Source: an uncultured Gemmatimonadales bacterium (lineage in GTDB: Bacteria; Gemmatimonadota; Gemmatimonadetes; Palauibacterales; Palauibacteraceae). From it: a stretch of 64,000 nucleotides of DNA. Positions 7,159-63,404 of this stretch are shown one piece after another (position 1 is the stretch's first letter; the number at the start of each line of letters is the position of its first letter). The stretch spans positions 224,001-288,000 of the forward strand of contig CAWANJ010000007.1 in NCBI GenBank assembly GCA_963783385.1, given 5' to 3'. The notes beneath the pieces were generated by a model. That model did no database searches. It had not been told where the DNA came from and worked only from the letters and a program-made list of their open reading frames with translations. The translations under genes and the position numbers were made by a program.

Positions 7159-7236
7159 AGCGGAGGCGGTTACGGCGTTGCGCACGCAGGCGGCGGGCGA
7201 GCGGCGGCAGCGTGATTCTCGATACGGAGGCGGGGC

Positions 7237-9574: not shown

Positions 9575-9609
9575 TTCGGGCGCTCGCCTTTCGGTATTTA
9601 TTCGGTATG
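9575..9609 (+). promoter_or_regulatory. Second copy of the TTCGGT direct-repeat operator, abutting the dnaE2 start codon
   Basis: CTTTCGGTATTTATTCGGTATG at 9588-9609 includes the ATG; extra TTCGG at 9575; no Shine-Dalgarno. Confidence 0.6.
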
Positions 9610-31899: not shown

Positions 31900-33426
31900 A
31901 TGAATCCTACGCGTGGTTCGAACAGGAGCTGGCTCGTCCCGGTGATGACGCTGGCGCTGGCGGCGGGGGTGACCGCACCGGCGGTCGCCCAGTCGTCCGG
32001 CGGCGGGGCAGCCGCGATGGCGGACACCACGCGGGGCCCGAAGCCCCTCAAATGGGGTACGGGCGCGTGGACGTTCGGAGCCTACATGGGGCAGTTCAAC
32101 GACGAGCCCGAGTGGCAGCCGGACGGGCGCGCGGACCAGCTCCAGCGCGGAGCGCTGTTCGGCGGCCGCATCGGCTACAACTTCCCCTTCAACCTGTTCC
32201 TCCAGGCGGAGGCTTCGAACAGCCTCCTCCGGACCGTCCTGGTCACGGGCGACATCTCGCGAAATACGAACCTGTTCCTGCTCGGAGGGGTCCTGGGCTA
32301 CAACATCCAGCCCATGCAGAACCTCCAGGTCTTCCCGGAGGTCGGGGTCGGGGCCGCCATCTTCAAGCCCACGGCGATCTCCTCCGAGACGCAACTGGCC
32401 TTTCTGTACGGGGCCGGCTTCCGCTACTTCGTGAGCCCGAAACTGGCGCTGCGAGGCGATGTGCGCTGGCACCAGGTGCCCAACGCCATGCGGGACATCC
32501 GAGACCGGCTCGCCGGGTCCGCCGTACCGCACTCCAACCTGTGGGGGCTCGAGCTCAGCGGCGGGCTATCCCTGTTCGTCGGAGGGCCGTCCGACGCCGA
32601 CCACGACAACGTGGACGACGCCAGCGATGCGTGTCCCGACACGCCGCGTGGCTATCCCGTGGACATGCGCGGCTGCCCGCTGGACGACGACGGAGACGGG
32701 GTTCCCAACGGCGCCGATCAGTGCCCCGGAACAATCCGCGGGGCGATCGTGGATCAGCACGGCTGCGCGCTGGACACCGATGGTGACCGGGTGCCGAACG
32801 GGGTCGACCAGTGTCCGGCCACGCCCAAGGGCGCCACGGTGGACGACCGCGGCTGCCCGAGCGATGCCGACCATGACGGCGTGTACGACGGGATCGACCA
32901 GTGCGCCAACACCCCGGCGGGCGCCACGGTGGACTCGAAGGGCTGCCCGTCGGACTCGGACGGCGATGGCGTCTACGACGGCATCGACCAGTGTCCGGGG
33001 ACGGCCGCGGGCCAGAAGGTCGATGATCGCGGCTGTCCGCCGGGCCTGATCATCCTGAAGAACGTGCCGATTCGCCTGGACCAGCTCGGCGTGTACTTCA
33101 ACTTCAACCAGGCGACCCTGCGGCCGGGCTCCTCGATGGCGCTCGACCTCGTCGGCCAGGCCCTGTCCCAGATGTCGGACGTGGAGATCGAGATCCAGGG
33201 GTACGCGGACGCCGTCGGGAGCGAGGCCTACAACCTGAAGCTCAGCCGGCAACGGGCCGAGACGGTGCGGGACTACCTGGCCCAGCACTTCCCGAAGCTG
33301 GACGCGTCGCGGTTCACCGTGAAGGCGTTCGGCGAATCCAACCCGGTGGAGTCCAACGCCACGCCGGCGGGCCGGGAGTGGAACCGCCGCGTGATCCTGG
33401 TGGTGGGGGGAGGCGGTTCGATGTAG
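31900..33426 (+). CDS. OmpA-family outer-membrane protein: beta-barrel, thrombospondin type-3 repeats, OmpA_C domain
   Basis: Signal peptide, barrel strands, DxDxDGV..D.CP repeats, IEIQGYADAVG...NLKLSRQRAETV...GESNP...NRRV. Confidence 0.92.
   Translation: MNPTRGSNRSWLVPVMTLALAAGVTAPAVAQSSGGGAAAMADTTRGPKPLKWGTGAWTFGAYMGQFNDEPEWQPDGRADQLQRGALFGGRIGYNFPFNLFLQAEASNSLLRTVLVTGDISRNTNLFLLGGVLGYNIQPMQNLQVFPEVGVGAAIFKPTAISSETQLAFLYGAGFRYFVSPKLALRGDVRWHQVPNAMRDIRDRLAGSAVPHSNLWGLELSGGLSLFVGGPSDADHDNVDDASDACPDTPRGYPVDMRGCPLDDDGDGVPNGADQCPGTIRGAIVDQHGCALDTDGDRVPNGVDQCPATPKGATVDDRGCPSDADHDGVYDGIDQCANTPAGATVDSKGCPSDSDGDGVYDGIDQCPGTAAGQKVDDRGCPPGLIILKNVPIRLDQLGVYFNFNQATLRPGSSMALDLVGQALSQMSDVEIEIQGYADAVGSEAYNLKLSRQRAETVRDYLAQHFPKLDASRFTVKAFGESNPVESNATPAGREWNRRVILVVGGGGSM
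32593..33039 (+). repeat. Five 30-aa (90-bp) TSP3-like Ca-binding repeats within ompA
   Basis: Units of DxDxDGVxxxxDQCPxTxxGxxVDxxGCP counted in the translation. Confidence 0.85.
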
Positions 33427-33603: not shown

Positions 33604-35661
33604 TCAGGGGCAGTCGACCTTGAACGAAACGGTCGTGCTCTTGCCGAACGACACGTCGACTTCCTGAGGGTTCGAGCTCGTCACGGTGCACTGCCCGGGC
33701 ACGGCGAGCGCGACGATGTGCGTCCCGACCGGGACGTCCGAGAACGTGTACCTGCCCTTGTCGGCCTTGATGGTATGGCCCGGACCGCCATCGAGGCTCA
33801 CGGAGAAGTTCGGCGGACGCTTCTTCCCGTGGGCCGAAGTCGTGGCCGTGACGCTCCCCACGTTGGGAGCGCAGCTCACGCTGAAGTCCACCGCCGTCGT
33901 GTCTCCCAAGGCGACCTCGACACTCACGGGGTTGGTGCTGGTGACCGTACAGTTAGGCGCGACGCTCGAGGTGACGAGCTGCACCGAGTGGCGGCCGATC
34001 GAGAGGCCCGAGAAGACGGTGCTACCGTTGGTGCTCACGGTTCGCGGCGTACCGCCGTCCACGTCCACCGAGTAGCCGTCGGGGTCCCGGTCCGAGCCGG
34101 ATGTCGTGTTGGATGAACGGATGCTCCCGGTCCTGGTCACGCAGCGGACGTCGAAAGTGACGGTGGAGGTGGAGCCGAAGCCGACGTCCACGCTCTGGGG
34201 GTTGGGGCCCGATACGGAGCAGTTGAATTCCAGGCCGGAGAGGCGCACCGAGTGCGTGCCAGCGTCGACGTTGGCCAGGGTGATCGAGTCCCCGGTGGCC
34301 ACGTGCTGGCTGAGCGTCCCGTCCAGGGTGACCGTGAACCCGTCGGGGTCGGGATCGGGTCCCGAGGTGGGAGCCCTGACCACGAGGGTACCCACGTCGG
34401 CCGTGCAGGTGACCTCGAAGGCCGCCGTAACCGTTCCGCCGCCGGGCACGGTCACCGTGCGCGGATTCGGGCCCGACAGCTTGCAGTTCTCGGCCACGTC
34501 CAGCAACTCGAGGGAGTGCGTTCCCGAGGGGAGCTCGCGGATGGTCAGGCTGTCGTCCGTCGCCAGATGCCGAGTGGGCCCGCCGTCTACGGCGAGGGTA
34601 TAGCCATCGGGGTCCCGGTCGATGCCCGAGGTCGAGGTGGTCACGTGCAGGTCGCCCGTCTGTGAGTCGCAGCTCACCGCGAAGGTGGTGGTGGCCGTGT
34701 CCTGGGCCGGGACGCTCACCGTGCGCGGGTTGGAGCCCGACACGGTGCAGTTGGCGGCCACGCTGTCGAGGCGGACCGTGTGGTCGCCCGCCGAGAGTCC
34801 CTCCACCGTCACCGTGTCGTCGACGGCCAGGTGCGGGCCGGCGCCGCCGTCCACCACCAGGCGGTAGCCGTCCGGGTCAACATCGACCCCCGACGTGGCC
34901 GAGGTGACCTTCAGGTCGCCCGGCTGGGCGGCGAGCGCCCCGTAGATGCTGAAGTGGGTGCTTTGGCCGGTCACGGTGTGAATCGTGGTGTCCACCGTGC
35001 TGCCGGTGACCGGCACCCACTGGCCGTCCTGGACGGTGTGGAGCCGGATGCTGCCCTCCGAGGCTCCCGAGGGCACGTTGGCCGGGTCGTAGACGATGCT
35101 GATCTGAACCGCCTTGGAGAACTGGGTGCCGTCGGGCAGGTACTCGTACGCCGGTCCCACGAGCCGGGAATCCGAGGCGGAGGGCAGCAGGGAGTCCGGC
35201 GCCGTGGCGACCGAGAGGACGACCGAGTCCGACACGGCCCCCGAGGGCACGTCCACGCGCGCCTTGCCGTCCGGAGTCGCCGCCGTTCCGCCCGAAGCGG
35301 CCACCACCACGCCGCACTGAACGTCGAAGCGGACCGAGGCGGTAGCATCGCTCGAGACATCGAAGGTCAGGGGGTTGGAGGGACCGGCGCTGCAGTTGGA
35401 GGCCACCTCGCCCAGGGTGAGCGTGTGCGCGCCGGGCTGCAGGCCCGAGAACGTCACAGACCCGTTCGGCGACACGTTCTGCGGCGAGCCATCATCCAGC
35501 GTGACCGTGTAGCCGTTCTGGTCCGGGTCGGACCCCCTGGTGCTCACCGTGACGCTCACCGTGCCCGGGTTGGGTGGCGGCACGATTGTAGGAGGTTCGC
35601 CACACGCTGTGATGCTCGCCAGCGTCAGGGCGAAAGAGGTCAGGTACAGGGATGAACGCAT
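33604..35661 (-). CDS. Repeat lipoprotein A: lipobox, ZU5-like domain, six ~88-aa Cys-paired beta-sandwich repeats
   Basis: LASITA|C lipobox; repeats of D-x-D-P-D-G-Y...NC...NP...F-x-V-x-C; ZU5-like PDGTQF...THFSIYG. Confidence 0.85.
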   Translation of the reverse strand: MRSSLYLTSFALTLASITACGEPPTIVPPPNPGTVSVTVSTRGSDPDQNGYTVTLDDGSPQNVSPNGSVTFSGLQPGAHTLTLGEVASNCSAGPSNPLTFDVSSDATASVRFDVQCGVVVAASGGTAATPDGKARVDVPSGAVSDSVVLSVATAPDSLLPSASDSRLVGPAYEYLPDGTQFSKAVQISIVYDPANVPSGASEGSIRLHTVQDGQWVPVTGSTVDTTIHTVTGQSTHFSIYGALAAQPGDLKVTSATSGVDVDPDGYRLVVDGGAGPHLAVDDTVTVEGLSAGDHTVRLDSVAANCTVSGSNPRTVSVPAQDTATTTFAVSCDSQTGDLHVTTSTSGIDRDPDGYTLAVDGGPTRHLATDDSLTIRELPSGTHSLELLDVAENCKLSGPNPRTVTVPGGGTVTAAFEVTCTADVGTLVVRAPTSGPDPDPDGFTVTLDGTLSQHVATGDSITLANVDAGTHSVRLSGLEFNCSVSGPNPQSVDVGFGSTSTVTFDVRCVTRTGSIRSSNTTSGSDRDPDGYSVDVDGGTPRTVSTNGSTVFSGLSIGRHSVQLVTSSVAPNCTVTSTNPVSVEVALGDTTAVDFSVSCAPNVGSVTATTSAHGKKRPPNFSVSLDGGPGHTIKADKGRYTFSDVPVGTHIVALAVPGQCTVTSSNPQEVDVSFGKSTTVSFKVDCP

Positions 35662-35852
35662 GCGTACCAAGCCGTTCACCGGCGGGCTCCCGGCTCGAGG
35701 TCCAGGGGGACCCCGACCATCAGCTTCACGATCTATGCCATGCGAAGCCGGGTGGGGTCGCGGGCCTACGACTCAGCCGCGAGTCCCCGTAGAGTCCCCA
35801 TGGGCTGTCTCGTTGGACATAGCCGTCACGGCCGCTCAGGCGGGCGGTCGCC

Positions 35853-38800
35853 TCACGGGCAGGAGACCGTGAACGGCGCCGACGCCTGGTTGCCGAAGGT
35901 GACGTTCACGCTCAGCGGGTTGGTGGTCGTCACGGTGCAGGTGGGGGACGGCACGTTGAGCGTCACCTGGTGGCTTCCGACCGACACGCTGGGGAACGTG
36001 TAGCCCCCGTTCGCTCCGATCGTCTGGGCCGTCCCGCCGTCCAGCTGCACGGTGTAACTGGTCGGGGCGCTCGCCCCTGAGCTCGTGGCGGTCGCCTGGA
36101 TGCTGCCCACGTTGGCCACGCAGCTGATCGTGAAGCTGACTGTTGACGTGCTGTCGTACGCGACAGTCACCGACGTCGGGTTGGAGCTGCTCACGGTGCA
36201 GTTGGCCTGTACGCTGGTGGGATCGATCGCCACGCTACGACTGCTCCCCACGGCCACGTTGTTGAAGGTGGTGCTTGCGTTCGTGGCCATCGTCTGGGCT
36301 GATCCGCCATCGACGGTGACCGAGTACCCGTCCGGATCGAGGTCCGTGCCCGTGGTCGAGTTCGAGGCCTGGATGCTCCCGACGTTGGCCTGGCAGGAGA
36401 CGGTGAAGGCAGCGGTGACCGTGGTGTTGTAGCTGACCGTCACCGGCTGCGCGGTGCCGCCCGTGCTGGTCACGGAGCAGTTGGCCGGCACGCCGACGAG
36501 GTTCACGGTGTGGCTGCCGGTCGGGACGTTGCTGAAGGTGACGCCGGTGCTGTTGTTGATCCCGATCGACTGCGCGTTGCTGCCGTCCAGGTCCACCGTG
36601 TAGCCGCTCGGCAGGTCGCTGCCGGTGGTCGAAGTGGTCGCCTTGACGGTGCCCGTGCTGGCCTGGCAGGAGACGGTGAAGGCAGCGGTGACCGTGGTGT
36701 TGTAGCTGACCGTCACCGGCTGCGCGGTGCCGCCCGTGCTGGTCACGGAGCAGTTGGCCGGCACGCCGACGAGGTTCACGGTGTGGCTGCCGGTCGGGAC
36801 GTTGCTGAAGGTGACGCCGGTGCTGTTGTTGATCCCGATCGACTGCGCGTTGCTGCCGTCCAGGTCCACCGTGTAGCCGCTCGGCAGGTCGCTGCCGGTG
36901 GTCGAAGTGGTCGCCTTGACGGTGCCCGTGCTGGCCTGGCAGGAGACGGTGAAGGCAGCGGTGACCGTGGTGTTGTAGCTGACCGTCACCGGCTGCGCGG
37001 TGCCGCCCGTGCTGGTCACGGAGCAGTTGGCCGGCACGCCGACGAGGTTCACGGTGTGGCTGCCGGTCGGGACGTTGCTGAAGGTGACGCCGGTGCTGTT
37101 GTTGATCCCGATCGACTGCGCGTTGCTGCCGTCCAGGTCCACCGTGTAGCCGCTCGGCAGGTCGCTGCCGGTGGTCGAAGTGGTCGCCTTGACGGTGCCC
37201 GTGCTGGCCTGGCAGGAGACGGTGAAGGCAGCGGTGACCGTGGTGTTGTAGCTGACCGTCACCGGCTGCGCGGTGCCGCCCGTGCTGGTCACGGAGCAGT
37301 TGGCCGGCACGCCGACGAGGTTCACGGTGTGGCTGCCGGTCGGGACGTTGCTGAAGGTGATGCCGGTGCTGTTGTTGATCCCGATCGACTGCGCGTTGCT
37401 GCCGTCCAGGTCCACCGTGTAGCCGCTCGGCAGGTCGCTGCCGGTGGTCGAGGTGGTCGCCTTGACGGTGCCCGTGCTCGAGACGCAGCTGATCGTGAAG
37501 CTGGCTGAGGCCGTGTTCCCGAACGTGACGCTCACCGACGTCGGGTTGGCGCTGGTCACGGTGCAGTTGGGAGCCACGCTGGCCGAGGCGATCGCCACGC
37601 TGTGGGTTCCGACGGCGACGTTGCTGAACGTCGTGCTGGCGTCGGTGGCCATGGTCTGGGCGCCGCCACCGTCGAGCGTCACCGAGTAGCCGTCCGCGTC
37701 CAGGTCCGTACCCGTCGTCGTGTTGGATGCCTGGATGCTCCCCTGGTTCGGGCTGCAACTGACGGTGAACGCGGCGTTCACCGCGGTCCCGAAGGTCACC
37801 TCCACGGTCTGCGTGGCGCCGCCCGCGCTGGTGATCGAGCAGTTGGCGTTCACGCCGCCCAGGGTGACCGTGTGGCTTCCGACCGGCACGCCGGTGAAGT
37901 CGTGACTCCCGGTCGGGCTGGTGATGGAGGCGGGCGTGCTGCCGTCCAGGGCGAGCGTGTAGCCGTCTGAATCCTGGTCCGATCCCGAGGTCGACGCCGA
38001 GGCGTGGATGGTCCCCACGTCCGCCACGCAACTGACAGTGAAGCTCGTCGTCGTGGTCTGCTTGTAGGTGACGCTGACCGTCTTAGACGCTCCGCCCGAT
38101 ACCGTACAGTTAGCGTTGACCCCGGTGAGCGTCACCGTGTGGCTGCCCTCGGCCACACTGGCGAACAACACGCTGTCTGTGCCCGTGATGGACTGGCCGC
38201 TGCCGCCATCCAGCAGGACCGTGTACGTATTGTCCGGGTCCGTGCCGCTCGTGGAGGTTTTCACGACCAGGTCCCCGACCCGCTTGCTGCAGTCCACGGC
38301 GAACGTGGTGGAGTCCACGCCACCGTCGGGAATCGTGACCGTGCGCGGGTTGGGCTGGGTCACGGTGCAGTTGTTGGCCACGCCGTCGAGCAGGACCTGG
38401 TGGTCGCCCGCGGCCAGGTTCGGGATCGTGATGGAGGCGTTGATCTCGATGGCCGTGCCGGCGCTGCCGTCGACCGCGACCGAGTAACCGTCCGGGTCCT
38501 GATTCTGGCCCGTCGTTCCCGTGATGACCACCAGGTCGCCCGGGAAGGCCGCGCACGTCACGTCGAAGGTGGCGGTGGACGTGGAGTCGAAGGCGACGTC
38601 CACGCTCTGCGGGTTGGCGCCCGAGATCGAGCAGTTGGAGACCAGGTCCGGACAGCTGGACGGAGTGGGTGCCGACAGCCACGTTGGCGAAGGTCACCGA
38701 GTCCCCGGTGGCCACGTGCTGGCTCAGCGTCCCGTCCAGCGTGACGGTGTAGCCGGTCCGGATCCGGGTCGGGCCCGGTGGTCGGGGCCCGGACCTTCAG

Positions 38801-40095
38801 GTTGCCGACCGCGGCCGAGCAGGTGACGTCGAAGCCGGCCGTCACGGTGCCGCCGTCCGGCACCGTCACGTTCTTCGTGGCCCCACCGGCCACGGTGCAG
38901 TTGGCCGCCACGCTGTCGAGCCGGACCGAGTGGCTGCCGGCCGCCAGCCCCGGGAGCGTCAGACTGCCGTTGATGGCCACGTGCTGCGCCAGGCCACTGT
39001 CCACGCTGACCGTGTAGCCATCGGGATCGAGGTTCGTCCCCGACGTCGACGTGGTCACCTGCAGGTCGCCCGTCTGCGAGCTGCAGCTCACCGTGAAGGT
39101 GGTGGTGGCCGTGTCCTGGGCCGGCACGCTCACCGTGCGCGGGTTGGAGCCCGACACGGTGCAGTTGGCCGCCACGCTGTCGAGCTGGACCGTGTGGTCG
39201 CCCACGGACAGCCCGCCTATGGCCAGCGTGTCGTTGATGGCCAGCGCCCGGCCGACGCCGCCATCCACACTCAGCTCGTATCCGGTCGAGTCGAGCTTGG
39301 CGCCGGAGGTGGCCGAGATCACCTGCAGGACACCCGGCTGGGAGGCGACCGCCCCGTAGACGCTGAAGTGGGTGGTCTGTCCTGTGACGCTGTGGAGGCT
39401 GGTGTCCACGGTGCTTCCGGAGACCGGGACCCACTGGCCGTTCTGGACCGTGTGGAGCCGGATGCTGGTCTCCGAGGCGCCCGAGGGCACGTTGGCCGGG
39501 TCGTAGACGATGGTGATCCGGACCGACTTGGCGAACTGGGTCCCGTCGGGCCGGTACTGGTAGGCCGAGCCCGTCACGTAGCCGGGGCCCGGCGAGGGCA
39601 GCAGCGAGTCGGCGGCCGGGACGACCGAGATTATGGTCGAGTCCGACAGGGCCCCCGAGGGCACGTCCACGCGCGCCTTGCCGTCCGGCGTGGCCGCCGT
39701 CCCGCCCGAGGCGGCCACCACCACCCCGCACTGCACGTCGAAGCGGACCGACGCGGTGGCGTCGCTCTGGACCGACGAAGCTCAGCGGATTGGAAGGACC
39801 TGCCTCACAGTTGGAGGCCACGTCGCCGAGGGTGAGGTGTGCGCGCCGGGCTGGAGGCCGCTGAACGTCACCGACCCGTTCGGCGACACGTTCTGCGGCG
39901 AGCCATCATCCAGTGCGACCGTATAGCCGTTCTGGTCCAGGTCGGAGCCCGTGGTGCTGACGGTCAGGCTCACCGTGCCCGGGTTGGGGGGCGGGACGAC
40001 GGTGGGTGGGCTGCCGCAGGTGGCGGCGACGACGGCCGGCTGACGACGCGACGGCGGCGCCGGATGATCGAACGCGCGCTCGAACGGGTGCTCAC
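35853..40095 (-). CDS. Repeat lipoprotein B (about 14 repeats + ZU5-like domain), broken by several frameshifts as assembled
   Basis: GAGGAG RBS and GTG 40095; VAAT|C lipobox. ORFs 39782-40141, 38558-39736 and 35853-38603 are colinear pieces of one paralog of gene A. Confidence 0.75.
36388..37478. repeat. Four tandem 273-bp (91-aa) near-identical coding repeats
   Basis: Unit starts GCCTGGCAGGAGACGG at 36388, 36661, 36934 and 37207. Three copies appear identical; the fourth differs at 2-3 positions. Confidence 0.97.
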
Positions 40096-40344
40096 CAGCG
40101 GACTCCTCGGATACGTGAACGTGATCGGCGCAAAGCCGCATCGCGCGCCTCGACCTGGGCTCGGCTGGATCCCGACGGCGCGTACCCGGCGAAACGGGAA
40201 GTTCTTGAACGCAGCTCCGTCAAGGACTCATCGACGCGTTATCGTAGCCTTGGAGGTGATCGCTACGGGCTCACGGTCCGCGTTGTTCATCGCACGTGGC
40301 TCGCGTCGTTCGGCAGATCGAGGCGATCGAGCCGTCCGCCGTCA

Positions 40345-43173
40345 TCATGCCAGATCTCCTGAGATCCCGCTCCGCAGCGCCGTGAAGTAGATCTTCGGTG
40401 CCATCCGGCGAGTACATACGGGTGCGAAGTCCGGAGCGGGTCGGTCGTGAGCTGGGTCGGCCGTTCCGTCGGTCGAGTTCATGACGTAAATGTCGCCGCG
40501 GCGTCCAAGTTGCGATCGGCTGGCAAACACGATCCTGGCTCCCGTCCGGCGAGCACGGCCGGGTTGAAGTCGTTCAATGTCGAATCTTGCGTGAGGTTCG
40601 TCGGCGATCGCATCGTGCTGAGGTCGATCGTGTAGATCTCGCCGTTTCCGACGTAGTCGCTGCGCCGAAGGCGATCTTGGTGCCGTCCGGCGACCAGTGC
40701 GGGTTACAGTCCGTTGAACGTGGGTCGACGTGATCTGCTTCAGGCCCGTGCCGTCGCGTTCATGGTGTAGATGTGTTGGAAACCGGAGTGGTCTGCCGGT
40801 CGAACGCGAGCGCGGTGCCGTCCGGTGACCACAGCGGGTGGCGCTCGGCGTTCCCGTCGTTCGTGAGGTACCGCTGGCCCGAGCCGTCCACCAGCATGGT
40901 CCAGATGTTCCAGGCGCCGCTGACCGCTTGCTCGGTGAACAGCGATCAGGTTCCCGTCCGGAGAGACGGCGGGCAGGCGCTCGTCCGTCGTGTTGTTCGT
41001 CAGGTTGGACTGCGGCTGTCCGTCCGTGTTCATCAGGTAGATCTGGAAGTGCCCGGTGCCGGTTCGATTCGAAGGCGATCTTGCTGCTCATCGGCGCCAC
41101 GCAGCCGACCGAGAAGCTGCTGTGCGCCGTCGCCCCGTGAAGGCATGGTCACGGTTTCGGGTTGGCGCTCTGCACCCGCAGTTCTCCGCCACGCCGCTCA
41201 GATCGTCGATCTGAGTGGCTCCCCACGGCATGCTGCCGAAGGTGACGGAGCTATTGCGCGCCATGCGTCTGGCTCGTGGTGCCGGAGTCGAGCGTGACCG
41301 TGTAGCTGGCGTCGAGGTTGGAGCCGGTGGTCGTGTTGCTCGACCTGGAGGTCGCCCACGTTCGCGGCGCAGCTCACCACGAAGGCCGTGTCCGTGACGC
41401 CGCCGTGCGGCGCGTCGACGGTCATCGGGTTGGCGCCGCTGACGGTGCAGTTGGACGCCACGTTCCCGAGCGTGGATCGTGTGGTCGGTCCGGCCGTGAG
41501 GGTGGCGTACGTGATGCTGTCGTTGACCGCGATCGGGACGCTGTGCCGCCATCCAGCGTGACGGTGTAGCCGTCCGGGTCGAGGTCCGTCCCGCCGGTCT
41601 CCGTGCTCACCTTGATGTCACCCGGTGAGCGAGACGCAGGAGACGTCGAAGGTGGCGGTGGAGGTGGAGTCGAAGGCGACGTCCACGCTCTGCGGGTTCG
41701 AGCCGGAGATGGAGCAGTTGCCGGCCATGCCGGTGAGCTGCACCGAGTGCGTGCCCGTGGCGACGTTCGCGAAGGTGACCGAGTCGTTCGCCGCCAGCGT
41801 TCTGGCTAGAGTGTTCCGTCGAGCGTGACCGTGGTAGCTGTTGGGTCGGGATCAGGCCCGGTGGTCGGGGCCTTGACCTTCAGGTTCCCGACACTGGCCG
41901 AGCAGGTGACGTGAAAGCCGGCCGTCGCCGTGCCGCCGTTCGGCACCGTCACGTTCTTGGTCGCCCCACCCGCCACGGTGCAGTTGGCGGCCACACTGTC
42001 GAGCAGGACCGAGTGGCTTCCGGCCGCCAGGCCCTGCAGCGTCAGACTGTCGTTGATGGCCAGGTGCTGCGTGGGACCGCTGTCGACGCTCAGCGCGTAG
42101 CCGTCGGGGTCCTGGTTTGTGCCCGAGGTCGAGGTCGTGACATGCAGGTCGCCCGTCTGCGAGCTGCAGCTCACCGTGAAGGTGGTGGTGGCCGTGTCCT
42201 GGGACGGCACGCTCACCGTGCGTGGATTCGAGCCCGCCACGGTGCAGTTGGCGGCCACGCTGTCGAGCTCGACCATGTGGTCGCCCACCGACAGCCCCAC
42301 GTCCAGCGTGTCGTTGATGGCCAGGTGCTGGCCGGCGCCGCCGTCCACCACGAGCCGGTAGCCGTCCGGGTCGAGATTGGCGCCCGAGGTGGCTGTGATG
42401 GTTTTCAGGACGCCGGGCTGGGCGGCGACCGCCCCGTAGATGCTGAAGTGGGTGGTCTGCCCGGTGACGGTGTGCAGGGTGGTGTCCACCGAGCTGCCCG
42501 TGACGGGCACCCACTGGCCGTTCTGGACGGTGTGGAGCCGGATGCTGCTCTCCGACGCGCCCGAGGGAACGTTGGCCGGATCGTAGACGAGAGTGATCTG
42601 GACCGGCTTGGAGAACTGGGTGCCGTCGGGTCGATACTGGTAGGCCGAGCCGGTGACGTAGCCCGGCGCCGGCGAGGGCAGCAGGGAGTCGGGGGCCGGG
42701 ACGACCGAGATTATGGTCGTGTCCGGCAACGCCCCCGAGGGCACGTCCACCCGGGCCTTGCCGTCCGGCGTCGCCGCCGTTCCGCCGCTGCCGTCCATTA
42801 CGACGCCGCAGTCCACCTCGAAGCTGGAGGACGCCGTGGCGCTGGCCTGGACGCTGACGCTCACGGGGGCCGATGGGCTGGCCATGCAGTTGGAGGCCAC
42901 CCCGCCCAGCGTGAGGTTGTGGCTCCCGACCGTCACGTCGGTGAAAGTCACGGTGCCGTTCGTAGCCACGTCTTTGGGCGTGCCGCTGTCCAGGGCGATC
43001 GTGTAACCGTCCGAATCCTGGTTCGAGCCACTGGTCTTGACCGTGGCCGTGACCGTCCCGGTCTTCGGCGGAGGAGGCGCGGTGGGAGATCCGCTGCACG
43101 TTGCGGCCACGATCGTCAGGAAGGTGATGAACACTCCGCGGCGCGCGCGGTCATACCACACTGAGGTACTCAC
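40345..43173 (-). pseudogene. Repeat lipoprotein C with C-terminal TolB/PD40-like beta-propeller; 3' half heavily frameshifted (pseudogene or assembly error)
   Basis: VAAT|C lipobox, ZU5-like domain and repeats intact over 41806-43173. Fragments KIAFESNR, MNTDG...NLTN...PAVSPDG and IVFAS...DIYVMN are scattered over frames in 40345-41100. Confidence 0.7.
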
Positions 43174-43514
43174 AGGTCGAGCCTCCGTAGCCGTGTTGAG
43201 CCGGTTGTCGCACATTTGAGCTTCGATTGTCCGGTCGAGTGGCCGCTGAATCCTGGTCTCACGACGTCCCCCGAACCGACGCGTCGGCCGGGACGCGGGC
43301 AACGTGGCGTCGGTCCTCGCAAGAACTGGACTGGCACGGTCCACGACACCCAACCGATTCGCGGATGGTGGCTTGGCTGGCTTTCACGCAGCGCGCGAGC
43401 CGCCGTGATGTGGTGCCGAAGCAACACCTGCGGGCCTCGATAAGAGTTGCCCACGGCTCGCCGCGACCGCCCACCTCCGTGCGGGATCCGTGCCGCGTCG
43501 CCCTCCGAGGCTCG

Positions 43515-43530
43515 TGGCACATGCCGTGCC
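43515..43530 (+). promoter_or_regulatory. Putative sigma54 -24/-12 promoter upstream of the deacetylase-like gene
   Basis: TGGCACATGCCGTGCC fits GG-N10-GC (also on the reverse strand), about 85 bp before GTG 43616. Confidence 0.5.
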
Positions 43531-43615
43531 CTACAAGGTCCCCGATTCCGCGTGGCCCGCACCGGCCGCGCCCGAGTGTGCTGGCTCCGCCGGACGGCGA
43601 TCGGGAGGTTCCAAA

Positions 43616-44521
43616 GTGGCAGCGCCGGACAACTCTGGACGGGTGGCTCACGTCCTGACCGTCGACCTGGAGGAGTACTTCCAGGTCGGCGAGTTCGCGG
43701 GCGTGGTCACGCCGGCTGAGTGGCCGTCGCTTCCCAGTCGCCTGCAGCCCTCGGTCGGCCGCCTCCTCGACCTGTTCGATGAGGCCGGCGTGGTCGCCAC
43801 CTTCTTCGCCGATGAATGGATCGCCAGCCACCACCGTGGAGTCATCCAGCAGCTGGCCCGGAAAGGCCACGAGCTGGGCGTGAAGACGTCGCTACGGACC
43901 GGCGATCCGCCCCGCGAGGCAGGGGCCTTCAGGACCGACGTGAGGCACGCGCGGGCCCGCCTGAAGGACATCGCGGGCCGGTCGGTGTTCGGTCACCGCG
44001 GTGGCCCCGGCACGCTGTCGCGTCGGGACGAGATCGGCCTCGACATCCTCATCGAGGAGGGCTTCCTGTACGACTCGAGCGCGGCCGACTCCTGGACGGC
44101 GCACCTCGTGGGGGACCGGAAGCCGATTCCGCGGGTCGTGGAGCGACCCTCCGGCGATCTGCTGACCCTGCCCGTGTCGCGTGCGTCGGTGCTCGGAGTG
44201 CCGCTGGGTCCGGCCGGCCGAATGCTCCGTCAGCTGCCCTATCCGGTGGCCCGGAAATGTCTTGCAAGGCACGAGAGGGACGGGCAAAGTGCGGTACTGA
44301 GGATTCGGTCCTGGGAGATCGACCCCTACCAGCCGCGGCTGTCTCACGCCCTCGGCGTGCGGCTCCGCCATTACGGCGGCCTGGAGCGGATGCTCCCACG
44401 GCTCGCTCGACTGCTGTCCGAGTTCAGCTTCACCTCGGTGGAGCGTCGGTTCGGGCTGTCACGTGACGACGGCGACGAGGGTGGGGCCTGGGACGAGAAG
44501 CTGGGAGCGGCGGGAGGATGA
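43616..44521 (+). CDS. Polysaccharide deacetylase-family protein (XrtA/PEP-CTERM-locus type, DUF3473 C-terminus), catalytic His residues absent
   Basis: GGGAGG RBS; LTVDLEEYFQV, ATFF, GHEL, GFLYDSS, WEIDPYQPR, RHYGGL. Confidence 0.85.
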   Translation: MAAPDNSGRVAHVLTVDLEEYFQVGEFAGVVTPAEWPSLPSRLQPSVGRLLDLFDEAGVVATFFADEWIASHHRGVIQQLARKGHELGVKTSLRTGDPPREAGAFRTDVRHARARLKDIAGRSVFGHRGGPGTLSRRDEIGLDILIEEGFLYDSSAADSWTAHLVGDRKPIPRVVERPSGDLLTLPVSRASVLGVPLGPAGRMLRQLPYPVARKCLARHERDGQSAVLRIRSWEIDPYQPRLSHALGVRLRHYGGLERMLPRLARLLSEFSFTSVERRFGLSRDDGDEGGAWDEKLGAAGG

Positions 44522-44690
44522 GCGCCGGGGCGCCGGCCGGGACCGGTGTGTTGCACGCGCCCGACAGCGGCGTGTCGCGGCGCCGCAGGAACGCGGCGCG
44601 CGGGCGCTGCGACCCACCGTCCGCGGGTCCGCGGGACGCCGATCGTGACAGGGCGTATCATCCGGATCGTCAATGCATTAGCTGATGGCT

Positions 44691-44737
44691 AGCGGGTCGG
44701 GCCCCGCGCACTGCTCGCGCCGGGAATCCGACTTGCT
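44691..44737 (+). promoter_or_regulatory. Leader hairpin upstream of the NusG-paralog gene
   Basis: AGCGGGTCGG pairs with CCGACTTGCT (two G-U) and encloses a second CCCG-CGC/GCG-C-CGGG stem. Confidence 0.35.
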
Positions 44738-44890
44738 TCCATGATGGGCCCGGGCACGCCGCGGCGTGTCCGATCACAGCTCGACCGAAGACAGCGGGGT
44801 GCCGCCTCCGACGATCGGTGGGATGGTACTCAGGGGCGCGAAGCGCATCCGGCGACCACGAGACCGCCGCACGAGGAGCCAGAGCCTGAC

Positions 44891-45436
44891 ATGGTAGCCG
44901 TCACCGAAACGCTCGCGCCGCGCTGGTACGCGTGTTACACGCGATCCCGGCACGAGAAGCGTGTCGACCAGCGTCTGCGCAGCCAGGGGATGGAGGTGTT
45001 CCTTCCCACGGTCGCCCGGGTCCGCCAGTGGCACGACCGCGAGAAGGTCGTGGAGTGGCCCCTGTTTCCCGGTTACGTGTTCGCGCGATTCGGGCTGGAC
45101 GCTCTCGCCCGGGTCCTGGGCACGCCGGGGGTCGCCACGGTGGTTCGCTTCAACGGACGGCCCGTGGCCATCCCGGAGCACGAGATCGAGAACGTGCGGC
45201 GACTGGCCCACGGGCTCGGTCGTGCCGACGCCGATCCCGAGCCGGTGCCCATGGTGGAGACCGGCCGGCCCGTCCGGATCACGTCCGGGCCTCTCGAGGA
45301 CGTGCGCGGCATCGTGGCCGAGCACCGCGGTCGGGACCGGCTTCTCATCACCGTCGGGCTGCAGTCGATCGGCCAGGGCATGAAGGTCGAGGTCGATGCC
45401 GGCCTGGTTGAACTCCTAGAGATCGAGGACCGATGA
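44891..45436 (+). CDS. UpxY/RfaH-like NusG-paralog transcription antiterminator
   Basis: WYACYTRSRHEKRV, QWHDREKVVEWPLFPGYVF, KOW motif VRITSGPL; first gene of the glycan operon. Confidence 0.9.
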   Translation: MVAVTETLAPRWYACYTRSRHEKRVDQRLRSQGMEVFLPTVARVRQWHDREKVVEWPLFPGYVFARFGLDALARVLGTPGVATVVRFNGRPVAIPEHEIENVRRLAHGLGRADADPEPVPMVETGRPVRITSGPLEDVRGIVAEHRGRDRLLITVGLQSIGQGMKVEVDAGLVELLEIEDR

Positions 45437-46482
45437 CCGATAAGACGATGGATCGGTGGAGAAACGACAGGGCCGTGGTGTGCGGCGCCGGTGGGTTCAT
45501 CGGCGGGCACCTGGTGGCCGACCTGTTGCGCAAAGGCTACACTGACGTGGTGGCCGTGGACAAGAAGCCGCTGGAGCACTGGTTCCAGCTCCACGAGGCG
45601 GCGGACAACCGGCGGCTCGACCTGAGCCTGCGGGAGAACGCGTACGAGGCGCTCGAGGGCGCGGCGCTGGTGTACAACCTGGCGGCCGACATGGGCGGCA
45701 TGGGCTTCATCGAGAACAACAAGGCCCTGTGCATGCTGAGCGTGCTGATCAACACCCACCTCCTGGAGGCCGCGCGGGACCATGGGGTCGAGCGCTACTT
45801 CTATTCTTCGTCGGCGTGCGTCTACAACGCCGACAAGCAGAAGAGCGCCGACGTGGTTCCGCTCAGGGAGGAGGACGCCTACCCGGCCATGCCCGAGGAC
45901 GGCTACGGGTGGGAGAAGCTGTTCAGCGAGCGGATGTGCCGCCACTTCCGTGAGGACTTCGGCGTGGAGACGCGCGTGGCGCGCTTCCACAACGTGTACG
46001 GGCCGCTGGGCACGTACGACGGCGGACGGGAGAAGGCGCCGGCGGCGCTCAGCCGCAAGGTGGCCGAGGCGAAGCTGGGCGGGGCGCGCGAAATCACCAT
46101 CTGGGGCGACGGAGAGCAGACGCGCAGCTTCATGTACATCGACGACTGCCTGAAGGGCACCCAGAGGATCGCCCACAGCGACATCGTGGAGCCCCTCAAC
46201 CTGGGCAGCGACGAGCTGGTGACGATCAACGGGCTGGTGAGCCTGGTGGAGGAGATCGCGGACATCGAGCTCGAGCGAGAGTACGATCTCACCAAGCCGC
46301 GTGGAGTGATGGGGCGCAACAGCGACAACACCAGGATCCTGGCGGAGCTGGGGTGGGAGCCCGGCATCCGGCTGCGGGAGGGCATGGAGAAGACCTACCG
46401 GTGGGTGGAGCAGCAGGTCTCCAGGGACCGCGAGGCGAGGGCGGCGGGCGAGGCCCGGCACTCCGTGTACGCGCTGCCGTGA
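45433..46482 (+). CDS. NAD-dependent epimerase, GDP-mannose 3,5-epimerase-like
   Basis: GAGGFIG, NLAADMGGMGFI, SSACVY, YGWEK, GGREKAPAA. Confidence 0.88.
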   Translation: MTDKTMDRWRNDRAVVCGAGGFIGGHLVADLLRKGYTDVVAVDKKPLEHWFQLHEAADNRRLDLSLRENAYEALEGAALVYNLAADMGGMGFIENNKALCMLSVLINTHLLEAARDHGVERYFYSSSACVYNADKQKSADVVPLREEDAYPAMPEDGYGWEKLFSERMCRHFREDFGVETRVARFHNVYGPLGTYDGGREKAPAALSRKVAEAKLGGAREITIWGDGEQTRSFMYIDDCLKGTQRIAHSDIVEPLNLGSDELVTINGLVSLVEEIADIELEREYDLTKPRGVMGRNSDNTRILAELGWEPGIRLREGMEKTYRWVEQQVSRDREARAAGEARHSVYALP

Positions 46483-47360
46483 GCTCGACCCCGGCGACGG
46501 CGCGACGGGAGGGCCCACCCGCGAAGGCGGAGGAGTCCAGCCCCACCGAGGTCCGGATCGAGCCTTCCACGGGCTGGATCTCGCTGAACCTCAAGGAGCT
46601 GTGGGAGTACCGCGAGCTCCTCTACTTCCTCACGTGGCGCGACATCAAGGTCCGCTACAAGCAGACCGTGCTGGGAGCGGCCTGGGCCATCATCCAGCCC
46701 TTCTTCACGATGGTGGTGTTCAGCCTGTTCTTCGGGAAGCTGGCCAAGGTCCCGTCGGACAACGTGCCCTATCCGATCTTCAGCTACGCCGCCCTGGTGC
46801 CGTGGACGTTCTTCGCCAACGGCCTCACGAGCTCGTCGAACAGCGTGGTGGGGAGCCGCAGCCTGGTGACCAAGATCTATTTCCCCCGGCTGCTGGTCCC
46901 TCTCGGAACGGTGACCTCCGGGGCCGTGGACTTCGTGCTGGCGTTCATCGTCCTGCTGGGCATGATGGTGTTCTACGGCATCGCGCCCACGGCCAACGTG
47001 GTGTGGCTGCCGGTCCTCCTCGTCCTGGCGTTCATCACCTCCCTGGGCGTGGGACTGTGGTTCTCGGCTCTCAACGTCCAGTTTCGTGACGTGCGCCACG
47101 TGGTGCCGTTCATCACGCAGTTCTGGCTGTTCGCGACCCCGGTGGCCTGGGCCAGCTCCATGCTGCCCCAGCCGTGGCGCACCCTGTACGCGATCAACCC
47201 AATGGCGGGCGTGGTCGAGGGGTTCCGCTGGGCGCTGATCGGCACGAACACGCAGCCCGGACCGATGATCGCGGTGTCCTCCGTGGTGGCCGTGTGCCTC
47301 CTGGTGTCGGGCGCCTTCTACTTCCGGCGCATGGAGCGAACCTTCGCCGATGTGGTTTGA
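46479..47360 (+). CDS. wzm: ABC-2 polysaccharide exporter permease
   Basis: ELWEYRELLYFLTWRDIKVRYKQTVLGAAWAIIQP, KIYFPR, NPMAGVVEGFR. Confidence 0.93.
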   Translation: MSSTPATARREGPPAKAEESSPTEVRIEPSTGWISLNLKELWEYRELLYFLTWRDIKVRYKQTVLGAAWAIIQPFFTMVVFSLFFGKLAKVPSDNVPYPIFSYAALVPWTFFANGLTSSSNSVVGSRSLVTKIYFPRLLVPLGTVTSGAVDFVLAFIVLLGMMVFYGIAPTANVVWLPVLLVLAFITSLGVGLWFSALNVQFRDVRHVVPFITQFWLFATPVAWASSMLPQPWRTLYAINPMAGVVEGFRWALIGTNTQPGPMIAVSSVVAVCLLVSGAFYFRRMERTFADVV

Positions 47361-47366
47361 GGGGAA

Positions 47367-48671
47367 ATGAACGACATCGCCGTACAGGTCCGCGGCCTCG
47401 GCAAGAAGTACCGGATCGGGGCGCTCGAGGAGGGTCGTCGCACCCTGCGCGAGACCCTGACCGACTCGCTCGCCGCACCGTTCCGGAAGGCGGGGAGCCT
47501 CCTGAGCGGCAACGCCTCGGGCGCGGCCGGCATGGAGGAGGAGATCTGGGCCCTGAAGGACATCTCCTTCGACGTGCCCAGGGGGCAGGTCCTGGGCATC
47601 GTCGGCAAGAACGGCGCGGGTAAGAGCACGCTCCTCAAGGTCCTCTCCCGCATCACCGAGCCGACCGAGGGGGTCATCGAGATCCGGGGCCGGGTCGGGT
47701 CGCTGCTCGAGGTCGGGACGGGCTTCCACCCGGAGCTCACCGGTCGCGAGAACGTCTACCTGAACGGGGCCATCCTGGGGATGACCCGCGTGGAGATCGA
47801 CGCGAAGTTCGACCAGATCGTGGCGTTCGCCGAGGTCGAGCGCTTCCTGGACACGCCGGTCAAGTACTACTCGAGCGGCATGTACGTGCGGCTGGCGTTC
47901 GGGGTGGCGGCGCACCTCGAGCCCGAGATCCTGGTGGTGGACGAGGTGCTGTCGGTCGGGGACGCGGCCTTCCAGCAGAAGTGCCTGGGCAAGATGGGGG
48001 ACGTGGCCCAGTCCGGCCGGACCGTCCTGTTCGTGAGCCACAACATGGGTGCGGTCACCGACCTGTGCGACCGGGCCATCCTGCTCGAGGGCGGACAGGT
48101 CACCATGGATGACGGGCCGGCCGAGGTCGTGAGCCACTACCTGACCTCGGGGGGGGAGACCTCGGCCGAGTGGCAGAGGCCGGAGTCCGACGATGAGGAG
48201 CCCGCCGAGGCGGCCATCCAGCGCGTGCGGATCCTCTCCCGGGACGGCGACCCCGAGGCTGTCATCCCCTTCAACCAGCCGTTCGATGTCGAGATCGAGT
48301 ACGAGATCCGCGAGCCGACCCGGGACCTGGTCATCGTGGCCGGACTGTGGAGCTACCGGGGCTTCCTCTGGCAGTCGTGGGACACGGACACGACCGGGCT
48401 GCGCGGCAAGGTCCGGGAGCCAGGCTCCTACGTGTCCCGCTGCCGCGTGCCGGCGGGCCTGGTGCGGCCGGGCCGCTACAGCGTCACGGTCGTGGCGCAC
48501 GTGCCGAACGTCGAGGCGGTCGATTCGTGGCACCACGTGCTGACCTTCGACGTGTCGCAGGTCGGCTTCCGCTTCGATCAGGACCGGGCCGGCTCGATCA
48601 CGCCCGTGCTCGAATGGGAAGTGACGCGGAAGGACCGGTCCGCACCCACCCTCGAGGCGACGCGGTCGTGA
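47367..48671 (+). CDS. wzt: Polysaccharide ABC exporter ATPase with C-terminal Wzt_C domain
   Basis: GKNGAGKST, YSSGMYVRLAF, VDEVLSVGDAAFQQKC, C-terminal beta-sandwich extension. Confidence 0.93.
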   Translation: MNDIAVQVRGLGKKYRIGALEEGRRTLRETLTDSLAAPFRKAGSLLSGNASGAAGMEEEIWALKDISFDVPRGQVLGIVGKNGAGKSTLLKVLSRITEPTEGVIEIRGRVGSLLEVGTGFHPELTGRENVYLNGAILGMTRVEIDAKFDQIVAFAEVERFLDTPVKYYSSGMYVRLAFGVAAHLEPEILVVDEVLSVGDAAFQQKCLGKMGDVAQSGRTVLFVSHNMGAVTDLCDRAILLEGGQVTMDDGPAEVVSHYLTSGGETSAEWQRPESDDEEPAEAAIQRVRILSRDGDPEAVIPFNQPFDVEIEYEIREPTRDLVIVAGLWSYRGFLWQSWDTDTTGLRGKVREPGSYVSRCRVPAGLVRPGRYSVTVVAHVPNVEAVDSWHHVLTFDVSQVGFRFDQDRAGSITPVLEWEVTRKDRSAPTLEATRS

Positions 48672-48741
48672 GGGGCGGCCGGGCGGCATCCGAACGGATC
48701 GAGGGCATCGACAACGCGAAAGCACGGACGTGGAGAGGAGC

Positions 48742-49575
48742 ATGAAGGCGATCATACTGGCCGGCGGGTTCGGGACGCGCCTGTCGGAGGAGACGCACCT
48801 CAAGCCCAAGCCGATGGTCGAGGTGGGGGGGAAGCCCATCCTCTGGCACATCATGAACATCTACGCCACGCACGGCGTGAAGGAGTTCATCATCGCCCTG
48901 GGCTACAAGGGCGAGCTCGTGAAGGAGTACTTCGTCAACTATTACGCCTTCAACAACGACATCTCGGTGGACCTGCGGACGGGCGACACGACCATCCACG
49001 ACGGCAACCAGCCCGACTGGAAGGTCCACCTGGTGGACACGGGGCTCCACACCCAGACGGGCGGGCGCCTCAGGCGTCTGCGGCGATGGCTCGGCGACGA
49101 CGAGCTCTTCCACTTCACCTACGGGGACGGCGTCGCCGACCTCGACCTCGGCGCCCTCCTCGACTTCCACCGCTCGCACGGCAAGCTCGGGACGGTGACC
49201 ACGGTCCGAACCCCGGCGCGCTTCGGGCGCCTGGGGCTGGACGGGGACCGGGTGGCCGACTTCCACGAGAAGCCGGAGACGTCCGAGGGCTGGATCAGCG
49301 GCGGGTTCTTCGTCCTCCATCCCGGCGCCATTGAATACATCGACGGCGACGAGTCCGTGTGGGAACGCGACCCCGTGGAACGCATGGTCTCCGCGGGCGA
49401 GCTCATGGGCTTCCGGCACTATGGTTTCTGGTCGTGCATGGACACGCTCCGGGAGAAGAACATGCTGGAGGCCGCCTGGGAGAGCGGTGACGCTCCGTGG
49501 CGCATCTGGGACCGGAGCGGCGAGCCCCCCCCGGTGCACCGTCATCCCGAGCCTCGGCCGTCGGCGGTCCGATGA
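48742..49575 (+). CDS. rfbF: Glucose-1-phosphate cytidylyltransferase
   Basis: MKAIILAGGFGTRLSEET..KPKPMVE, TQTGGRL, TYGDGV, GFWSCMDTLRE. Confidence 0.93.
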   Translation: MKAIILAGGFGTRLSEETHLKPKPMVEVGGKPILWHIMNIYATHGVKEFIIALGYKGELVKEYFVNYYAFNNDISVDLRTGDTTIHDGNQPDWKVHLVDTGLHTQTGGRLRRLRRWLGDDELFHFTYGDGVADLDLGALLDFHRSHGKLGTVTTVRTPARFGRLGLDGDRVADFHEKPETSEGWISGGFFVLHPGAIEYIDGDESVWERDPVERMVSAGELMGFRHYGFWSCMDTLREKNMLEAAWESGDAPWRIWDRSGEPPPVHRHPEPRPSAVR

Positions 49576-49640
49576 TCGGGCCGCGAACGTCCGGTGCGGC
49601 GTTCCGGCGGACCCGGAGCTGAGGTCCGGACGCAGGGACC

Positions 49641-50624
49641 ATGGCGAACGCGTCGAAGCCCGTCGTCACGATCGGCATCCCCGTCTTCAAGCGGTTCCGC
49701 TTCCTGCCGGACGTCCTCCGGTCGGTGGCGGAGCAGGACTACCCGGACATCGACCTCCTGGTGTCCGATAACGGGGAGAACGGGCCGGAGCTCGAGGAGC
49801 TGGTGCGGAGCCATTATCCGCGACCGTTCCGCCTGCGCCGGAACCCGGTCACCGAGCCGGTCATGTCCCGGCACTTCAACCAGATGGTGGAAGCCGCGCA
49901 AGGGAAGTACTTCGTCCTTCTGTGCGACGACGACGAGCTGGGGCCCCGCTTCGTCTCCTCCCTCGTCGAGATCCTGGAGCGGGATCCGGAGGTGGGGGTC
50001 GGCATTCCGCGCGTGGAGGTGATGGACGAGGAGGGCAACCCCGAGCCGCGCGAGCACTCTTTTCCCCCCTCCGAGGTGTTCAGCGGCCTCGAGCTCGTCC
50101 GCATGTGGGTCCGGAAGCGCGTCCGTTTCTGGACCTTCGTGACGACCCTGGCCCGCACGCAAGACATCCTGGACCTGGGCGGTTACCCGCCCATCCCGGA
50201 GGCCGACGACAACACGATGGTCGTCAAGCTGTCCCTGGGTCGGAAGGCGGCCTTCTCGCGGGAGGCGGAGTTCCGGAACCGATGGTACGAAACGAGTGCG
50301 GGGCTGTCGCTGGCTCCGGAGGAGCTGGCGGAAGACATGCGGAAGTGGATCCACGTGCTGGACACCGACCCCGTGTTCCGGGAGTTCGCCCGCCGGCGTC
50401 CGGGGGAATGGAAGGAGATCCACGACCTCCTGGTAGAGCAGGCGTGGAGGAACTTCCGGTACCGGTGGGTGACCCTGTACCGGGAGCGCATGGAGCCCCT
50501 GGAGTGGCTCCGGGCGGGATTCACCATGCCGTTCATCCCGGCCTACTACCGGTGGCTGTTCGCCTATCTGTTCCGGACCGGCCTGCGGGCCACCGGACGA
50601 CGCCTGGTGGGGTCCCGTGGCTGA
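49641..50624 (+). CDS. Glycosyltransferase family 2
   Basis: VTIGIPVF, VSDNG, GKYFVLLCDDD. Confidence 0.85.
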   Translation: MANASKPVVTIGIPVFKRFRFLPDVLRSVAEQDYPDIDLLVSDNGENGPELEELVRSHYPRPFRLRRNPVTEPVMSRHFNQMVEAAQGKYFVLLCDDDELGPRFVSSLVEILERDPEVGVGIPRVEVMDEEGNPEPREHSFPPSEVFSGLELVRMWVRKRVRFWTFVTTLARTQDILDLGGYPPIPEADDNTMVVKLSLGRKAAFSREAEFRNRWYETSAGLSLAPEELAEDMRKWIHVLDTDPVFREFARRRPGEWKEIHDLLVEQAWRNFRYRWVTLYRERMEPLEWLRAGFTMPFIPAYYRWLFAYLFRTGLRATGRRLVGSRG

Positions 50625-51621: not shown

Positions 51622-51646
51622 CCGAACCCCGACACAGAGGAGCTCC

Positions 51647-52573: not shown

Positions 52574-52589
52574 CAGAGCCGAGAATTCC

Positions 52590-56473: not shown

Positions 56474-56474
56474 C

Positions 56475-59453: not shown

Positions 59454-59457
59454 GACC

Positions 59458-60644: not shown

Positions 60645-60679
60645 TCCGAGAGGTCCGATCGAAGCGGCGAGCGATCCCC

Positions 60680-61510: not shown

Positions 61511-61513
61511 GAC

Positions 61514-63397: not shown

Positions 63398-63404
63398 GAA
63401 GGCC

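Follow-up and report, generated by a model that had tools for sequence, protein, structure and literature searches.

Three adjacent paralogs, genes A, B and C, on the minus strand of a 64,000-nucleotide stretch from an uncultured Gemmatimonadales bacterium (contig CAWANJ010000007.1, positions 224,001 to 288,000; hereafter the window), encode putative lipoproteins built on one plan. A signal peptide and a single repeat are followed by a ZU5-like domain ending in the motif HFS and then by a cargo that differs between the three. On balance, we favor the reading that these are exported, lipid-anchored proteins that cut themselves within ZU5 and carry a sheddable stalk. Its parts are not equally firm: judged by homology, self-cleavage of the domain at HF/S is probable, and surface exposure with release of the cargo, also argued from homology, could go either way. 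The original prediction had put forward an anchored, self-cleaving bacterial family. The Phe-Ser pair is indeed kept across a large, mostly lipoprotein family, but two publications have already put forward bacterial surface proteins with self-cleaving ZU5/GAIN domains (PMC3482391; 10.64898/2026.05.12.724683). What is new is the inverted arrangement of N-terminal lipid anchor, ZU5 and variable cargo, rather than the mechanism.

The ZU5 Fold and the Register of the HFS Site

A 131-residue segment of A (P0002) was modeled with AlphaFold2 from an 81-row alignment. The model (pLDDT 94.4) places HFS in the turn that joins strand 112-119 to strand 122-126, before the last strand. Foldseek matched it to ankyrin ZU5 at E 1.8e-7, with VIA Z scores of 13.2-13.6. 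In a structural comparison with 48,161 representative chains, the top match was again ankyrin ZU5 (Z 13.2, root-mean-square deviation (rmsd) 2.8, 125 residues aligned), followed by CD97 GAIN (9.1), UNC5b (8.4), CARD8 (8.1), BAI3 (7.7), NLRP1 (7.2 and 6.1, with 6-8 as the overall range) and Nup98 (3.9-4.7); GAIN/GPS chains as a group gave Z 5.8-9.1. On the strength of this model, the domain of A, B and C has a ZU5 fold and is kin to GAIN, FIIND and Nup98, in line with the resemblance first proposed from sequence. Profile matches are fainter. Pfam ZU5 (PF00791) matches the isolated segment marginally, at 21.4 bits against a cut-off of 21, and the whole protein at 17.8 bits, under the cut-off; 55 of the 81 alignment rows (one protein entered twice) match it at E<=0.01. 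A profile search of the PDB returned only weak ZU5 matches (E 0.03-0.08), a single-sequence PDB search returned nothing, and NCBIfam holds no family for the three proteins. No bacterial ZU5 or MAIN structure appears in the fold-match lists for the domain, an absence that proves nothing.

The predicted cut is placed by structural alignment. Ten alignment rows stop at model residue 120, the Phe of HFS, one of them a ZO-1 construct that itself ends there; the tool reports alignment ends only. For chains that end at NLRP1 1212, Nup98 863 and GPR56 382, each directly before the nucleophile, the alignment runs as far as Phe120; the literature places Ser1213 at the opening of the C-terminal part of NLRP1 and names His862 in Nup98 and Thr383 in GPR56. 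An [HS]-hydrophobic-[ST] triplet in the turn before the last strand is thus in register with known autoproteolytic sites, which bears out the suggestion that HFS is a putative autoproteolysis motif; the accompanying statement that UNC5CL cleaves itself is supported by the relevant passages of PMC7883297. The three HFS sites lie exactly where they had been reported and are encoded by CACTTCAGC. No other HF[ST] motif occurs in any minus-strand frame of the window, and the three on the plus strand are unrelated. Since the three copies are paralogs at 76-86% identity, they are not three independent observations.

Conservation and Architecture of the Wider Family

A search with the domain gave 5,440 clusters at 50% identity (E up to 0.001), and the family counts below refer to the best 150 of these, a sample biased towards the query; one was lost on re-alignment, which leaves 149 proteins with 190 domain copies. 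Phe is present in 164 copies, Ser/Thr in 158 and His in 98, and the nucleophile is absent from 31. The triplet x-[FL]-[STC] is intact in 116 of 118 single-copy proteins versus 43 of the 72 copies in multi-copy proteins, a contrast that is inflated and not made up of independent events because a single clade of 26 rows holds most of the dead copies. The check on Ser conservation that had been proposed for the motif accordingly came out in its favor among single-copy homologs. Losses of the nucleophile are mostly to Gly, the substitution of a cleavage-dead GPR56 variant in the published work.

A lipobox together with an intact site is found in 96 of the 149 representatives, and in 87 of these 96 the cargo behind the site exceeds 100 residues. 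Cargo domains were surveyed by a Pfam scan of 76 representatives, in which propellers (23 of 76, by eye) stand beside Ig-like repeats, leucine-rich repeats and CHAP or M23 peptidases. Other layouts occur as well: about 34 of 47 very long homologs have a copy in the C-terminal half (by eye), six representatives have SLH or a C-terminal helix, which is the MAIN layout, there are SLH- and helix-anchored homologs with HF[ST], and SpvB/RHS proteins are also matched by the query and its profile. A domain tree, built from too few columns, gave no order of lipid-anchored versus C-anchored forms. The few relatives with organism names come from Nitrospirota, Chloroflexota, Gemmatimonadota and Deinococcus aetherius. 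On a plasmid of the last, a cultured species (L003, 5818-7113; WP_264778392.1), a lipobox, ZU5 and HFS are followed by unrelated cargo. Four lipoproteins of one clade (P0124, P0137, P0151, P0253) carry two to five tandem ZU5 copies, all without the nucleophile; judging from these sequences, ZU5 is reused there as a structural repeat.

Predicted Lipid Anchor and Repeat Stalk

The original prediction gave the three proteins a shared lipobox. Using the lipobox pattern [LVI][ASTVI][GAS]C as our own rule, we find the canonical form in A, where a basic N-region and a hydrophobic stretch lead to ITA-C; B and C have AAT-C instead, with the Cys and the hydrophobic stretch kept in orthologs. These signals predict lipidation firmly for A and less so for B and C. 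A strict lipobox stands at the start of 105 of the 149 representatives, and a looser rule finds one in 122 of 149 versus 3 of 690 internal control windows. No C-terminal sortase, SLH or membrane anchor was found in the A, B or C proteins. ZU5 begins about 100 residues past the lipid Cys.

The cargo of A and B, and the first part of that of C, consists of further copies of the repeat. A profile built from ten family proteins counts 1+5 repeats in both A and C and 1+13 in B, as read originally from the sequence; the propeller of C, also noted then, is seen as fragments downstream in the gene and intact in its ortholog P0008, with PD40/DPPIV_N. A two-repeat model (pLDDT 96.7) shows a seven-stranded CnaB/prealbumin sandwich like those of pilins and SdrD, with Z 9.7 to the GBS52 pilin and Z 9.2 to 5u6f (rmsd 2.5 over 86 residues). 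The domain after the cut matches CnaB/prealbumin folds best; no UPA domain is in the repeat's fold lists, and this absence proves nothing. The profile search suggested earlier for a named family found none in Pfam, NCBIfam or Atlas that covers the whole repeat: Atlas neighbors are SpaA-like, and gene A scores 19.7 bits against Pfam SpaA (PF17802), under the cut-off of 23.1.

Two cysteines are invariant in 779 of 779 full repeats, and disulfides within the repeats are probable from this pattern. The DxDxDG motif that had been thought possibly calcium-binding survives in its core, Dx[DN]G[YF], in 647 of the 779, with N, D or S at the first position in 575, but the strict motif Dx[DN]xDG is found in only 201; calcium binding by these loops is possible. 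The repeat is common in lipoproteins, and its six organism-named members are all from Gemmatimonadota, which together with the Atlas results points to this phylum as the probable host. A relative has a fourth paralog type, P0035, which is not in the window; it has the same layout with RLG at the site and offers a natural cleavage-dead control.

Proposed Mechanism and Alternatives

We propose that A, B and C would be exported and lipid-anchored in a diderm bacterium and that ZU5, once folded, would cut between Phe and Ser of HFS via an N-to-O acyl shift. The part retained at the membrane would comprise the lipid, the first repeat and the ZU5 core (about 22 kDa in A). The remainder (about 45 kDa in A) would start with one beta-strand kept inserted in the ZU5 sandwich, and this strand would carry the stalk of disulfide-containing CnaB-type repeats, with a beta-propeller tip in C. 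Held non-covalently, the stalk would be shed on pulling or when the anchored core is destabilized. The chemistry would be that of MAIN and GAIN domains and the polarity that of NLRP1 and CARD8, in which the cargo takes the strand with it and the core remains in place.

Several observations weigh against this proposal. The best fold matches are ankyrin, ZO-1 and UNC5b, with ankyrin ZU5 about 4 Z units over any GAIN or FIIND chain, and the domains of these three proteins are not known to self-cleave. His is present in only 70 of the 118 single-copy proteins, a conserved substitute His for the SFS/GFS group was looked for and not found, and shape alone may account for the retention of Ser or Gly in a tight turn. 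ZU5 accompanies the repeat in only 9 of the 120 listed repeat-family matches. Two of the nine are from the window itself; HFS is present in six of the remaining seven, and P0035, a close paralog, has RLG in its place. Cleavage would therefore be dispensable for such stalks, and the rarity of ZU5 among the listed repeat proteins also indicates that the fusion of stalk and ZU5 is local to one lineage. The Thr at -1 of the B and C signals recurs in 5 of 113 family signals, all within the A/B/C clade. The variable His, by itself, is no strong argument against activity, since published accounts describe cleavage at SFS in both CARD8 and NLRP1 and continued cleavage of Nup98 after mutation of its His.

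These points leave room for other readings. It is unlikely, in our estimate, that the domain cleaves and its parts never separate in life, so that cleavage would be a folding or maturation step in the making of permanent stalks. The MAIN domain of Bacillus subtilis YfkN, which cleaves at HF/S, speaks for it: its parts stay associated, the fragments co-purified, and release came only with sodium dodecyl sulfate or 95 °C in the experiments described (10.64898/2026.05.12.724683). That most proteins with the A/B/C-type repeat have no ZU5 also fits. Against it stand the near-complete retention of the nucleophile in single-copy proteins and the location of the site, which in 87 of 96 proteins separates anchor from cargo, as would be expected for release; cleaved GAIN domains, moreover, are reported to detach at a few piconewtons. 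Somewhat less likely still is a non-catalytic ZU5 that serves as a spacer or binding module, as in ankyrin, with HFS as a structural turn. The lead of ankyrin in the fold search, the 31 copies that lack the nucleophile and the tandem dead-copy arrays (P0124, P0137, P0151) all suit such a role, which has to be set against the exact HFS motif, aligned with sites of proven cleavage. Published accounts have HFS cleaved in YfkN, PIDD and Nup98, and the SFS and Nup98 data cited above extend this to variant sites.

Doubtful, too, is a trigger of the NLRP1 kind, in which proteolysis, possibly periplasmic, removes the anchored N-terminal part in place of any pulling force, and the freed fragment signals or is exported later. 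Lipoproteins face the periplasm by default. NLRP1 shares the polarity proposed here, and the first strand of its C-terminal part is described as completing ZU5 and being freed by N-terminal degradation. Against this reading, the Pfam scan of 76 representatives gave no match to a signaling domain, and a 13-repeat stalk would measure about 45-50 nm by our estimate from typical domain sizes, longer than the periplasm is wide. A more speculative idea, to which we give very little credence, is that the anchored ZU5 core acts as a reusable socket, an empty core taking up the leading strand of another paralog by donor-strand exchange. It is allowed because the paralogs share near-identical cores and leading strands and differ in cargo. 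If it were true, surface stalks could be swapped or regained post-translationally, even from one neighboring cell to another. Self-cleavage with a sheddable stalk is the reading that we retain.

Relation to Known Systems

Among the closest known systems are the MAIN domains reported in 2026 (Brogan and Rudner, bioRxiv 10.64898/2026.05.12.724683), which cleave at HF/S and are, in that account, virtually all C-terminally anchored. They share with A, B and C a bacterial GAIN-like beta-sandwich and an HFS site; MAIN itself is described as a surface tether with adhesion or enzyme cargo, for which release is proposed. A has a GAIN-B-like fold and the HX(S/T) motif by which MAIN domains are recognized, though its fold is nearer ankyrin ZU5 than GAIN. 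The architectures differ: MAIN proteins run signal, cargo, MAIN, anchor and are enriched in Bacillota, whereas A, B and C run lipid anchor, repeat, ZU5, cargo, so that the core would stay on the cell where in MAIN a single strand does. The words 'lipoprotein' and 'ZU5' are absent from the main text of that paper. By analogy, we place the domain of A, B and C as a ZU5-superfamily member that is MAIN-like in its presumed working and departs from MAIN in architecture.

N-terminal ZU5 autopeptidases were predicted earlier in polymorphic toxins, where they would free the protein at the base of a filament (Zhang et al. 2012, PMC3482391); the relevant section notes related domains in adhesion and enzyme surface proteins and offers cleavage as a prediction only. 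ZU5 lies close to the N-terminus in A, B and C too. The toxins, however, have an RHS/SpvB core and a C-terminal toxin, and A, B and C have no RHS, SpvB or toxin domain in Pfam or NCBIfam scans, ending instead in a repeat (A and B) or a PD40 propeller (C). That section mentions a CxH thiol site and leaves lipid anchoring unmentioned; the ZU5 domain of A, B and C has no Cys.

Among eukaryotic proteins, the FIIND (ZU5-UPA) of NLRP1 and CARD8, PIDD and Nup98 share the ZU5 fold and [HS]F/S at the domain end. In FIIND-type proteins, the C-terminal part is reported to give the last strand and to be freed, as we propose for A, B and C. Those proteins are intracellular. In A, B and C, the next domain is modeled as CnaB/prealbumin-like, and a death-fold effector is absent. 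Adhesion G-protein-coupled receptors offer, in GAIN/GPS, a related fold, HX(S/T) chemistry and a model of force-dependent dissociation; they differ in that a seven-helix receptor keeps the short strand on the cell as agonist, while A, B and C have no receptor and the opposite polarity. The stalk resembles the CnaB/SpaA stalks of Gram-positive pilins and SdrD B repeats as a tandem seven-stranded sandwich (Z 8-9.7) and differs in its two invariant cysteines, in having no Pfam family for the whole repeat and in its occurrence in lipoproteins named from Gemmatimonadota. We also drew on passages of PMC3210808, PMC7483925, PMC8195603, PMC3417536, PMC13197933, 10.1101/2020.08.14.246132 and PMC10607210. 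The literature searched, which covers few subscription journals, gave no description of lipid-anchored ZU5 proteins or of the repeat; the supplements of the MAIN and Zhang papers may list such proteins.

Gene Array and Genomic Context

Table 1. Features of the array (window coordinates)
Feature	Coordinates	Strand	Remarks
Gene A	33604..35679	-	intact, 691 residues; signal peptide with ITA-C lipobox, repeat, ZU5, 5 repeats; from open reading frame, repeat profile and orthologs P0006, P0007
Gene B	35853..40095	-	frameshifted; AAT-C signal (Cys codon from 40018), repeat, ZU5, 13 repeats; start set by L002 alignment
Gene C	40220..43173	-	heavily frameshifted past 41850; AAT-C signal, repeat, ZU5, 5 repeats, TolB-like (PD40) propeller; end placed from L002 alignment
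ZU5 of A (P0002)	34918..35310	-	takes in the strand after the predicted cut; from AlphaFold2 model, ankyrin ZU5 match and Pfam
ZU5 of B	39332..39724	-	from translation; 76% identity to ZU5 of A
ZU5 of C	42412..42804	-	from translation; 97.7% identity to L002 ortholog
HFS of A	34948..34956	-	predicted cut F/S; register from structural alignment
HFS of B	39362..39370	-	motif scan
HFS of C	42442..42450	-	motif scan
Stalk of A	33610..34920	-	five two-cysteine CnaB/prealbumin-fold repeats; repeat profile and fold matches
Four tandem 273-bp copies in B stalk	36386..37478	-	99% alike
Indel-dense stretch	39776..41845		67 frameshifting indels, insertions in excess; third-position divergence not raised

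The genes lie head to tail in the order C, B, A. The original prediction was right that three co-oriented paralogs are present but overlooked the frameshifts in B and C: A alone is an intact open reading frame, B is spread across several frames and the frame of C shuts at 41806. A related genome (L001 and L002) shares the gene order and the adjoining polysaccharide deacetylase; there C is complete, and what is assembled of B and A reads in frame. Alignment of the window to L002 reveals 53 insertions and 21 deletions, 74 indels in total, of which the 67 frameshifting ones all lie from 41845 to 39776; none occurs across the 2.9 kb preceding 41845, and 51 of the 67 sit in the coding part of C, to 40290. 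Two further frameshifts, at 38756 and 38647, appear against L001. Third-position divergence in the broken part of C is 0.18 and 0.14 versus 0.15 in the clean part, with first and second positions somewhat raised in the broken part. Uncorrected errors of unpolished long reads are the likeliest cause of the frameshifts, and pseudogene decay of B and C is unlikely, because third-position divergence in broken C is not raised.

Each paralog's domain is nearer its L001/L002 ortholog (89-95% nucleotide identity) than its neighbors (82-87%), which led us to reject triplication in assembly; by the same sequence comparison, the paralogs are older than the split from this relative. The intact relatives of B, P0003 and P0004, have 11 repeats in all versus 14 in the window's B. 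The four 273-bp copies in B, which lack the Asp-rich loop and are not present as such in the relative's B, are a recent expansion or an assembly artefact. Promoter and terminator scans gave nothing useful, and Rfam found nothing.

On one flank of the array are a sugar transferase, a Wzb-type phosphatase and an OmpA-family protein (31900-33426, plus strand; beta-barrel, thrombospondin type 3 repeats and a peptidoglycan-binding domain), the last convergent with gene A. On the other lies a large plus-strand glycan locus (43490-63400) with the XrtA-type deacetylase, a UpxY antiterminator, Wzm/Wzt, glycosyltransferases and genes for a sugar-phosphate cytidylyltransferase, a C-methyltransferase, a sulfotransferase-like protein and a carbamoyltransferase. 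The array is on the strand opposite to both glycan flanks. Its position between two glycan loci had been read as a sign of a role in matrix or attachment; the location is correct, but a functional link is weakly supported, as synteny with the deacetylase is seen in one close relative at about 90% identity. At 54865-56473 (plus strand), an FAD-dependent oxidoreductase similar to L-2-hydroxyglutarate oxidase is read in two frames (profile positions 1-171 and 187-353), which suggests another frameshift. Farther off, at 3579-13086 (plus strand), a RecA-like gene and an error-prone DnaE2 polymerase have a TPR protein between them, perhaps as an ImuA/ImuB/DnaE2 cassette.

Implications

In 2026, MAIN domains were put forward as a way for Gram-positive bacteria to shed wall-anchored proteins. 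The domain of A, B and C, 131 residues long and cysteine-free with natural HFS, SFS, GFS and dead variants, is a simple test bed for the determinants of cleavage and for a bacterial origin of PIDD/NLRP1-type processing. The family to which it belongs suggests that diderms apply the MAIN chemistry to lipoproteins, with the polarity reversed and with many types of cargo (96 such architectures in the nearest 149 out of 5,440 clusters).

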